Source of the DNA: Patescibacteria group bacterium
GTDB taxonomy: Bacteria > Patescibacteriota > Patescibacteriia > 2-12-FULL-57-11
Length of the DNA: 64,000 bases
Direction of reading: 5' to 3'
Assembly (NCBI GenBank): GCA_004297205.1
Contig: SCUL01000002.1
Coordinates: 530,893-594,892 of the forward strand
The notes beneath the pieces are model-generated. The model saw only the letters and a list, made by a program, of their open reading frames with translations. It was not told the DNA's origin and did no database searches. The position numbers were made by a program, and so were the translations under genes. Positions 41,471 through 47,256 of this stretch are shown piece by piece (position 1 is the first letter of the stretch; each line of letters begins with the position of its first letter).

Positions 41471-44740
<3,270 letters not shown>

Positions 44741-44754
44741 AGGCGTACGAACAC

Positions 44755-44923
44755 AAAAAATCCCCTCCCCCGCGCGGACGGGGGAAGGCCGGAGTATTTA
44801 GTTGTGGGTGCTCGCGGAGAGCGCGCGTTCCACGTGCATGGGCTGGCCAGCCCCGAAAGGTCGTCATCTCAGCGAAAAATGACGTGCCCCGGAGTCTGGC
44901 GTGGTCAGTTCCCTTTACAATCC
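44755..44923 (-). ncRNA. candidate ~170-nt structured RNA / attenuated leader upstream of rpoB
   Basis: Promoter at 44958-44930, no plausible ORF, rod-like pairings, GC hairpin + U6 ending 15 nt before the rpoB ATG. Confidence 0.55.
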
Positions 44924-45144: not shown

Positions 45145-45173
45145 TTGACAAAAACTCCTGGCTGTGATAGCCT
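45145..45173 (+). promoter_or_regulatory. sigma70 promoter
   Basis: TTGACA-17bp-TAGCCT with TG extension. Confidence 0.75.
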
Positions 45174-45179
45174 CTCCCG

Positions 45180-45850
45180 TTCTGCCCGAAAACCCTTCGG
45201 GTAGGAGGACCTCAAAAAACGTACGCCAGCCCGTTGTGGAGGAGAGAGTCCCGCCGTTCCCTTTTCCAAAAGGTAGGGCGGGATGGGATCCCCCGCGCCG
45301 CTGCGGCTTCGGCTGCACCCGGCCGCGCCAGGGAACCCGCACCCCGAGGAGTCTTCGGACACACCCGGGATTCGTCTCCACAACGGGACGGCGCACTTGC
45401 CCCGTCGCATGACGGGGCGCCATCTGCGTAAACGCATGGAGGAGAGAGTCCCGCCTTCCTTTCAAAAAAGGAGTGGCGGGAATACGCGGCACGAACGGTA
45501 CCACTTGGGCTTCGGCTCGACCGGTTCCGGGATGGCCGCGCGGACGGCCGCCCTTCGGGGCAACGTCGTCCATTCCCTCCAGTCGCTTCCGCAGATGTAA
45601 ACAGAGTGGCCGCACCGACCGGGGAGGGGCGCATTGCTGCGATCGCCCTTTCAAACATCACAAGACCGTTTCCCCTCCCCCGTCGGCGCGGTACACAGTT
45701 GCCCGATGTTCGAAGGACCGTCCGCGCGATCCTGTTCGTGCCGACCGTCCTTCGGAAACATCTGAAGGCTCTGGTGCCCCGCCTAAAGCGGGGATTTGCG
45801 TCTTAGCGGACGCGGGAGACGGAGCGATCCGGCTTCGTTTTGGAGGAGCA
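45180..45850 (+). ncRNA. candidate large (~670 nt) structured ncRNA / 5' leader with two similar domains
   Basis: Contiguous stems; TGGAGGAGAGAGTCCCGCC at 45237 and 45437; several TTCG loops. Confidence 0.65.
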
Positions 45851-45852
45851 GC

Positions 45853-47256
45853 ATGGTGACTACCAACAGCCACGAGTCGAGGCGACAGGCCATCCGGGCC
45901 ATGCTCGTCGACGGCGTAACGCAGTGCATGGGCGAGGCGGCCACCGGCAAGGTGTGCAGCCGGATCCACGGCACGGCCGTCCCGTCGTTCGACGGGCGGC
46001 ACTCGATTCCGATCCGCTTCGAGAAGGGCGCGCTCGTGCACGGGGAGATCGTCTTCCTGTGCTCGCTCTGCGCGATCTTCGCGAAGAAGGCGGGGCTCGA
46101 CGTCCTCCCGCTCGACGAGCTCGAGCGCCGCGTGCTGGACACGCTCGGTGAGGCACCCGCCGCACCGGCCGCATCCCCGCCCGTGGCGGCTCCGCCGCCC
46201 GTGATGCCCGCCGTCGGCCGCGTGCCGGCCGTCCGCAAGGACGCGCTGGAACAGCCGGATGTCGCGCGCCCGCAGGCTCCGGCTCCCCGCAAGGAAGAGC
46301 CGATGCTCCAGGCCAAGCGCGGACCGCACCCGCGGTCGGCCCGAGGCCACTTCGTGTGCCTCGAGTCGAGCCGGGTGTTCGAGGAGATCTTCGTCCTCAA
46401 GACGAACAACCTCTGCAGCTGCGGCGCGTGCGACGTGAAGGCCGGCAAGGGCTTCGCGACGCGCAACGGCGACTACACGGGCGCCCGGTTCCCGATCTGC
46501 CCCGTTGGCATCGAGGCCGCGCTGCGCGTCTGCAGCACGGTCCGGCGGGCCGGCGGCAAGCCGGTCTACCTCATCTTCCGGGACGAGGCCGACTGGCAGA
46601 GGTTCGACGAGCGGCGCAAGTACGACGTCGCGCGCGACGCAGCCCGCGGCCACGCCGTCCTCGACGGCGAGCTCGGGAACGATGCCAACGACGTCTGCGC
46701 GGTGTTCATCTGCCGGGCCCCGAAGCCGACGGATCGCGTGGCGACGTTCGATGCGGTGCACAACCTCTTCATCGAGCATCGCATCTGCGGCCGCTGCGCC
46801 CAGTCCGCGCGCAAGCTCAGCAACCAGCTGCGCGAAGGCGGACAGCGCTGGGCCTTCCAGCTGCTGCGCGAGGGTCAGAAGCTGACCCCCAAGCAGCAGG
46901 ACGACCTGCGCCGCGCCGCGAAGCAGCGCCGCAAGGCGACGCCCGCGGCGAAGCAGTCGACGATCTCGTCGTCCGCCCCCAAGGGTTCGGCGCCCCCGGC
47001 GCCGAGCGCGGGCAAACCCTCGTTCGGCGAACAAATCGCCAAGGCAGGCCGGAACATCAAGGCCAAGCAGGCCGAGGACGCCGCGCCGGCCGCAGTCGCG
47101 TCCGCAACGCCGGAGCCGGAGGCCGCCGAGGCCGCCGCACCGGATTCCTCGGAGCCCGCCGCCGAGCCGACGATCGCGTCGGTTTCGGAGGCGGCGCCCG
47201 AAGCACCCGCACCCGCATCGCCCCAGGAGGGACCGATGGGCGGCGGGGCGGGCTGA
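45853..47256 (+). CDS. orphan protein with three putative zinc-finger modules and a disordered Ala/Pro/Glu tail
   Basis: GGAGGAG RBS; QC..VC/FLCSLC, CSCGAC/ICPVG, CAVFIC/RICGRC. Confidence 0.75.
   Translation: MVTTNSHESRRQAIRAMLVDGVTQCMGEAATGKVCSRIHGTAVPSFDGRHSIPIRFEKGALVHGEIVFLCSLCAIFAKKAGLDVLPLDELERRVLDTLGEAPAAPAASPPVAAPPPVMPAVGRVPAVRKDALEQPDVARPQAPAPRKEEPMLQAKRGPHPRSARGHFVCLESSRVFEEIFVLKTNNLCSCGACDVKAGKGFATRNGDYTGARFPICPVGIEAALRVCSTVRRAGGKPVYLIFRDEADWQRFDERRKYDVARDAARGHAVLDGELGNDANDVCAVFICRAPKPTDRVATFDAVHNLFIEHRICGRCAQSARKLSNQLREGGQRWAFQLLREGQKLTPKQQDDLRRAAKQRRKATPAAKQSTISSSAPKGSAPPAPSAGKPSFGEQIAKAGRNIKAKQAEDAAPAAVASATPEPEAAEAAAPDSSEPAAEPTIASVSEAAPEAPAPASPQEGPMGGGAG

Follow-up and report, generated by a model that had tools for sequence, protein, structure and literature searches.

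Bacteria have small RNAs that sequester proteins by mimicry, such as CsrB/RsmZ, 6S and GlmY. To our knowledge, few regulators are known in Patescibacteria. A different kind of mimicry concerns the ribosomal protein uS15. According to the available parts of the papers cited here, its binding site consists of a three-way junction and a GU/GC motif about 10 base pairs away (Slinger et al. 2015, PMC4684408), and the GU/GC motif is read by uS15 residues His41, Asp48 and Ser51 (PMC8470358). The rpsO mRNA operators copy only part of the uS15 site in rRNA (PMC4684408; likewise Eckert and Weinberg 2020, PMC7247131), and in the accessible part of a 2024 review rpsO autorepression is given as the sole known extraribosomal activity of uS15 (PMC10931766). 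Here we describe a modular RNA, one arm of which resembles the rRNA site of uS15, at a place far from rpsO. A literature search that covered titles and the opening lines of abstracts returned no description of such an ncRNA family.

The window, i.e. the whole stretch of 64,000 nt that was analysed, comes from a genome of 1.09 Mb with 64% G+C. A folded RNA fills the intergenic gap between a divergent gene, which we take to be rpoB from its translation, and an orphan gene (Table 1). A sequence-only reading of this gap had described two multibranch domains, and every one of the helices it listed was found again. The closing arms of the first domain (45230-45241 and 45376-45387) can be extended to 45221-45241 and 45376-45396, those of the second are 45421-45442 and 45576-45597, and both domains contain the same exact 19-mer (at 45237 and 45437). 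Also present are two further long stems, one at 45610-45691 and one at 45711-45754, and the row of three short hairpins ahead of the RBS. The region 45170-45860 folds at −367.9 kcal/mol (z −9.57), a value equalled by none of 20 dinucleotide shuffles, and the folded structure is real. The minus strand of this 691-nt stretch also folds strongly (z −8.45); because of this the strand was assigned from the promoter and from the UUCG loops and G·U pairs, not from energy.

Table 1. Features of the rpoB-orphan gene interval (positions in the window).
Feature	Position	Strand	Basis or remark
rpoB, divergent neighbour	41471..44740	-	own promoter at 44958-44930
sigma70-like promoter: TTGACA, 17 nt, TG + TAGCCT	45145..45173	+	seen in sequence
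5' hairpin	45180..45206	+	sequence varies in relatives
Module 1 (D1), four-way junction P1-P4	45230..45387	+	covariance model R2, 145.7 bits
D1 arm P3, predicted uS15 site	45295..45324	+	same register as 16S helix 22
linker palindrome, short	45399..45418	.	inserted; absent in G001-G003
Module 2 (D2), four-way junction, extended outer stem	45421..45597	+	D1-only model R1, E 1.3e-6
D2 arm P3, predicted uS15 site	45498..45527	+	G45508·U45517, G45509-C45516, G45498-C45527
long stem D3, A/C-rich loop	45606..45696	+	loop kept in four closest genomes
stem D4	45706..45761	+	sequence/fold
three short hairpins before RBS	45777..45841	+	fold
RBS	45841..45848	+	8-mer identical to P1 5' strand
orphan gene, 467 aa	45853..47256	+	three Cys/His clusters, low-complexity tail

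The promoter ahead of the RNA falls under the cut-off of the consensus promoter scan and is thus unlisted there. Its −35 element, spacer and the TA...T of the −10 element are kept in genomes G001, G002 and G003, and we infer transcription from this site with a start expected near 45180. None of the six overlapping ORFs is conserved: relatives show frame-shifted or stop-containing pieces, and their alignments contain 12, 14 and 15 gaps not divisible by three (terminal ones included). Two details of the initial description hold only for this genome. The exact 200-nt spacing of the domains is found here and not elsewhere, e.g. it is 175 nt in G002, where the linker is without the 23-nt palindrome; the spacing is incidental, a local accident. 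The P2 hairpin with its CCTTT-N4-AAAGG cap is present in both domains here, but in G001, G002 and G003 the two domains do not have it in common. The two P2 hairpins (45249-45283 and 45449-45481) are alike only in this genome and that of D1 resembles the P2 of G003; recent conversion of the D2 hairpin by D1 is suggested by these sequences. The RBS 8-mer is only partly kept in G001-G003.

Some features near the modules deserve a record of their own. Stem D3 is outside the class-wide module; four genomes conserve its A/C-rich loop (45644-45672), and L034 and L051 contain similar words. A near copy of the linker palindrome is found elsewhere in this genome and in other genomes of the class. Similar GC-rich palindromes are located in linkers or loops of other loci (L002 1819-1845, L004 about 1635-1650, L005-L014), even inside tRNA-like sequence, and such short inserted palindromes may be REP- or MITE-like. 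The leader of rpoB (window 44763-44870) has conserved hairpins, one of them followed by a run of T directly ahead of the start codon. Elsewhere in this genome (C2 466556-466630 and 656866-656940) ARAGORN reports a tRNA with the anticodon UCA and an isoleucine tRNA with the anticodon UAU.

The orphan protein has four homologues at 45-56% with conserved cysteines, and its three Cys/His clusters are likely to bind zinc. A Pfam scan of the protein gave no match and an atlas search gave nothing above 0.78; the predicted model is poor (pLDDT 52.7), too weak for a fold search. It evolves fast; the genes at the same position in G004 and G006 also have Cys-x4-Cys...Cys-x2-His motifs and little other likeness. 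The terminator scan found no terminator-like site between the folded RNA and the orphan gene.

Searches with known RNA models did not assign the RNA to a family. Rfam 15, run over the whole window and also in E-value mode, returned only tRNAs and three weak chance matches on the minus strand, and it matched none of 18 further loci, of which 6 carry modules and 12 carry rpsO leaders. Curated models of GOLLD, ROOL and OLE did not match at the locus, RNase P RNA and tmRNA models match elsewhere in the genome and not at the locus, and 6S and small SRP RNA models have no match in this genome. Of 60 relatives searched with a BLAST-type method, 3 contain the element; the remaining matches were to the short palindrome or to tiny pieces. 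More was gained with covariance models. The model R1, made from D1 alone, retrieved D2 as well as new copies; the two domains are copies of one module. The sensitivity of the searches rests on R2, a model of 10 sequences of which nine are from the family of the window. R2 matched in 15 of 150 genomes (one of them doubtful; this match in G029, L046, was left out), in 13 of an overlapping set of 150 genomes and in 5 of 80 further genomes of the class. It had no match in 80 genomes of other Patescibacteria classes, a scan that included no positive genome. When the upstream regions of 40 other rpoB genes were scanned without filtering, two clear loci and one weak one came to light, and the idea that the element is always beside rpoB was rejected on this count. 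The same scan caught G041 and G085, both overlooked in the genome scans, so the prevalence given here is a lower bound.

Scanning the genomes of all species with a pattern returned 112 matches. Of the 80 that were examined 25 passed the model, five of them duplicates of known loci. The module-bearing records are labelled Patescibacteria, Parcubacteria or Candidatus Uhrbacteria, and 9 of the 25 passing loci are labelled Gammaproteobacteria. Five of these nine have an rpoB 54-76% identical to that of this genome and the remaining ones are like Patescibacteria loci in their module or their neighbours; the Gammaproteobacteria labels were taken as loose for these reasons. The exact linker pattern occurs in 4 of 401 class genomes, all from the window's family, and not at all in viral sequences; its three metagenome matches comprise two chance ones inside a coding gene and one true copy without new sequence. 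A relaxed pattern had at least 120 viral matches, and none of the 80 that were examined passed the model. The total is 44 loci from at least 13 families of one Patescibacteria class, presumably ABY1, with a unit of ~155 nt in 1-3 copies per locus. At least two copies were scored at 22 of the 44 loci, and the searches run found one module locus per genome.

In 31 of the 44 loci (41 have that much upstream DNA) a promoter-like site lies no more than 400 nt from the first module. Terminator-like hairpins follow the last module within 110 nt at 6 loci and directly precede the first scored module at 9 loci. There are stand-alone copies with promoter- and terminator-like flanks, e.g. L222 and L292, the terminator of L292 being unlisted by the consensus scan and found by a custom script. 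The flanking ORFs of 35 loci (68 ORFs scanned) are housekeeping genes and unrelated orphans. Several loci have an arrangement of their own. At five of them (L040 1310-1495, L041 1370-1495, L043, L042 and L092) a variant unit is found just after the promoter, upstream of a standard module; in this unit GGAGAGAG can pair with CTCTCTCC, and CTCTCTCC overlaps a terminator-like hairpin, which makes the arrangement attenuator-like. At L037 5985-7700 (G004) and L038 1-1283 (G006) the leaders are non-coding and heavily folded, with lengths of ~1.7 and ~1.3 kb, and their modules are widely separated. At L045 1766-2782 (G037) the module is followed by two ORFs, one NTPase-like and the other Csx3-like (Pfam PF09620, E 1.9e-5).

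Two explanations bear directly on this distribution. Type III toxin-antitoxin systems have the order promoter, repeated structured RNA, gene. The order at our locus is similar, and the modules could be an RNA antitoxin array with the orphan protein as the toxin. This is highly improbable given that the downstream proteins are not one family and have no Pfam match, that stand-alone copies exist, and that the units are divergent and ~155 nt long instead of short near-identical repeats. The other explanation is a small mobile or selfish element of the MITE kind, or an rRNA-fragment relic, spreading from one hot spot beside an orphan gene to another and having no regulatory job. The variety of contexts (rpoB, frr, TrmB-holB, valS, leuS, rpsO and murB), the patchy presence in the class (15/150 and 5/80 genomes) and the inverted ends with palindromic inserts inside would fit such an element. 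A MITE would be expected in many dispersed copies, not at the one locus per genome that these searches found, and the modules have compensatory changes throughout, the outer stem included. Their invariant G·U pair, UUCG loops and fixed promoter orientation indicate selection on the RNA, and the same place beside rpoB is occupied in several families. We therefore regard a mobile element as unlikely.

Covariation in the modules is strong. When 24 modules were aligned to the model, 88.9% of the cells pair and 41 of the 50 pairs have changes on both sides, values that lean towards the structure since the alignment was fitted to it. None of 500 shuffles reached any of the five measures, and slid controls gave 39-46%. 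Selection at the RNA level had been expected from outer stems that differ in sequence and still pair; the compensatory changes, which include the outer stem, the conserved promoter and the lack of a coding signal bear this out. Nearly all invariant bases are helical and belong to P1 (pairs U-A, G-C, G-C, A-U and G-C) or to the tip of P3 (G·U and G-C), P1 being as invariant as P3. The junction strands vary, P2 is freely variable and sometimes missing, and P4 has a short asymmetric loop. In most four-way modules 69-78 nt separate the P3 apex from the 3' end; the apical loop of P3 varies and tolerates a 20-nt insert. A G·U pair followed by a G-C pair at the P3 apex, 64-90 nt from the 3' end, is found in 65 of 67 distinct modules (probability ≥0.5), as compared to 5 of 67 in the reverse-complement control. 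This near invariance is partly circular because the step was built into R1, R2 and the search pattern, and only the flanks of the core step count as independent evidence. Downstream copies at L266, L273, L277 and L280 have a G·A mismatch in P1 (CUACA for CUCCA).

The lack of a conserved unpaired pocket and of a common gene class suggests that the module is a binding surface made of helices, which looks like a protein-binding one. The locus had initially been read as a tandem-aptamer riboswitch-like leader or a large ncRNA. A leader or large non-coding RNA agrees with the covariation, the promoter and the missing coding signal; the tandem-aptamer riboswitch part does not agree with invariant bases that are paired. 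A tandem riboswitch that senses a metabolite or ion for the downstream gene would account for the leader position, the tandem units and the absence of a terminator before the ORF at our locus, and terminator-like hairpins just before the first scored module are found at 9 of the 44 loci. It would need a conserved unpaired ligand pocket, and the junction strands, where one would lie, are variable. Rfam has no match, its glycine riboswitch model (RF00504) included, which gave nothing at the locus at E ≤ 10. The downstream genes are unrelated orphans, or there is none and a terminator follows directly, and the terminator scan of this genome shows no platform 3' of the modules; the 3' strand of P1 could pair with the RBS, which relatives keep only in part. 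The RNA is probably not a metabolite riboswitch; we consider a ligand-sensing switch of any kind very unlikely.

What the P3 arm resembles is a site in 16S rRNA. Helix 22 in the 16S rRNA of this genome, the uS15 site, has the same GG/CU step as P3, followed by GGAAC and by CC at +9/+10. In all 25 class 16S rRNAs helix 22 contains the GG/CU step together with G(−10), Y(+9) and C(+10), whereas positions +6 to +8 vary; the pair that comes next is Y-R in 24 of them. In P3 of the modules position +9 is a pyrimidine in 63/65, a G-C pair is formed at +10 in 51/65 and positions +5 to +8 vary. The modules that combine G(−10) with Y(+9) and C(+10) number 45 of 65, or 18.7 of 36 clusters, as compared to 63 of 981 similar hairpins in this genome. 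In D1 the key pairs are G45305·U45314 and G45306-C45313; position −10 is G45295 and position +10 is C45324.

When a cluster-weighted profile was made from positions +1 to +12 of the modules, helix 22 came out first of the 227 CU sites in the 16S and 23S rRNA of this genome (7.7 bits; the next site has 4.6), a rank obtained after the fact, as the likeness was first seen by eye. rRNA was never used in finding the modules. Helix 22 remains first with the 28 singleton clusters, with the window's family removed and in 192 of 200 random halves; 7 of 1000 column-permuted profiles reached rank 1, and a profile from the window's family alone (12 modules) put helix 22 only eighth. The P3 5' strand beside the G·U pair ranks 196/403 against 16S rRNA, which is no match, and its distal part 23/403; the modules have Watson-Crick pairs where 16S rRNA has a purine-rich loop. 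A three-way junction was not found one turn from the P3 motif: at this distance there is the G-C pair at −10/+10 (51/65) and then an internal loop of 3-5 nt. The pair at −10/+10 is presumably touched by uS15.

The uS15 of this genome keeps H41, D48 and S51. Its gene, rpsO, is far from the RNA locus (C2:633887-634144) and has its own leader hairpin. As a positive control, GGY/RCU pairs were looked for in rpsO leaders of the class and found in 13 of 29, as compared to 17 of 290 shuffles and 0 of 39 rpoB leaders; 16 of the 29 leaders failed the motif test. In the rpsO leader of this genome the motif is visible by eye, but it fails the probability test. Two class rpsO leaders carry the apex decamers of the module itself, and a variable apical loop is common to the modules, helix 22 and rpsO leaders. 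Under the module profile the rpsO-leader sites score −1.8, barely above the background of −3.5 ± 4.0. Among the loci with flanks read no module was found to precede rpsO, and one module locus, L273 (1495-1649 and 2081-2338), is divergent from it. A separate observation is that the rpsO upstream regions L331-L360 (in this genome C2 about 634150-634220) have a class-wide hairpin with GGY/RCU, often as CTT-GGY...RCT-CGG, that ends 17-37 nt before the rpsO start and has no Rfam match. By its sequence it is a candidate uS15 leader of the class, a by-product of this work that is absent from Rfam.

P1 has no such counterpart in rRNA: a comparison with rRNA gave no good match (best 7-8 bits). Mimicry of 16S helix 20 was rejected as this helix varies among the 16S rRNAs of the class, and helix 23 was rejected on rRNA comparison. 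The 3' strand of P1 ranks 10/4770 against the anti-Shine-Dalgarno tail. Likeness to the G3·U70 minihelix of tRNA-Ala was also considered and dropped, since the module has no free 3' end there and the flanking pairs differ.

The invariance of P1 is the reason to weigh a scaffold. Helix packing through G·U pairs is a general feature of RNA and large RNAs that form multimers are known. The invariant pairs could thus serve RNA-RNA packing, the P3 G·U pair docking on G-C pairs of P1 within or between modules, or they could be bound by a protein other than uS15. Such a scaffold would explain two invariant helical patches at a fixed distance (69-78 nt from apex to 3' end) and tandem copies at half of the loci (22/44), and it gives a reason for P1, a part that the uS15 reading leaves unexplained. 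It leaves unexplained why the P3 3' strand ranks helix 22 first of 227 sites and why the G·U/G-C step recurs in rpsO leaders, and the 68 flanking ORFs include no shared neighbour gene that could be the partner of another protein. We regard the scaffold as possible and somewhat doubtful.

By sequence comparison, this RNA is a conserved non-coding, promoter-associated modular RNA with a helix-22-like arm. The explanation that we favour, with a probability of about 0.5, is a multi-site uS15-binding RNA that would act as a sink or sensor outside the rpsO operon; for uS15 binding by the modules as such the odds are about even. P3 of each module would copy helix 22 of 16S rRNA and thereby bind free uS15. 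Once uS15 exceeds 16S rRNA, the modules would become loaded with the protein. Stand-alone copies such as L222 and L292 would titrate uS15, ease the repression of rpsO and in this way buffer its autorepression in trans. If the modules run into a gene, which is the case here, they could couple this gene to the uS15 signal. When a module is unfolded, the anti-Shine-Dalgarno-like 3' strand of its P1 might swap onto the RBS at 45841-45848. This swap is the weakest step of the explanation, and a cis switch of the downstream gene is much less probable than uS15 binding.

A more speculative extension can be put forward tentatively: the modules may be class-wide rRNA-mimic decoys in which a helix-22 site is combined with an SD/anti-SD-like helix, and arrays of them may count free uS15 and then either sponge it or switch fast-evolving orphan genes. 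If this is true, the uS15 count would report on stalled rRNA synthesis in a cell that depends on a host, and there would be a uS15 regulon together with a ribosomal-protein sponge outside any ribosomal operon. Binding of uS15 would in itself extend rRNA mimicry from the autoregulation of a ribosomal gene to a sensor, either free-standing or coupled to a gene, for the balance of ribosome assembly. An RNA with such strong covariation that is retained by at least 13 families with small genomes is probably functional. The RNA is real and forms a new family, which most likely puts a known kind of rRNA mimicry to a new use; in the titles and abstract openings searched, a uS15-catching role away from rpsO is not described.

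The known systems differ in how much they have in common with the module. Tandem glycine riboswitches likewise have tandem units, and the succession of P1, a GAGAG strand and a variable P2 recalls, as we see it, the glycine aptamer; unlike the riboswitch, the module has an extra arm, no conserved ligand core and no common gene context. CsrB/RsmZ, 6S and GlmY are similar, as far as the available parts of their descriptions go, in that repeated or mimic sites are placed on a small RNA that has a promoter and a terminator of its own. In contrast to CsrB/RsmZ, the GGA of the module is paired in P1 and not exposed in hairpin loops, and unlike in these sponge RNAs the proposed target is a ribosomal protein and the mimicked model an rRNA helix. 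GOLLD, ROOL and OLE resemble the RNA in a length of several hundred nucleotides, a multibranch fold and strong covariation, judging from the accessible part of their description (PMC12286853). In contrast to them our RNA is a repeated ~155-nt unit in variable copy number, and the 80 viral pattern matches contained no true copy. The uS15 r-leaders, i.e. the rpsO operators of E. coli, Geobacillus, Rhizobium and Thermus and the archaeal S15 leaders, share with the module a copy of the helix-22 GU/GC motif and have a second conserved site about one turn away, according to the available parts of PMC4684408 and PMC7247131. Unlike an r-leader, the module does not precede rpsO, occurs in 1-3 copies, is sometimes free-standing and has a four-way junction closed by an SD/anti-SD-like helix. 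The stacked G·U/G-C of the uS15 r-leaders is present in 65 of 67 modules, a count partly circular through the models, and in both copies of the window.
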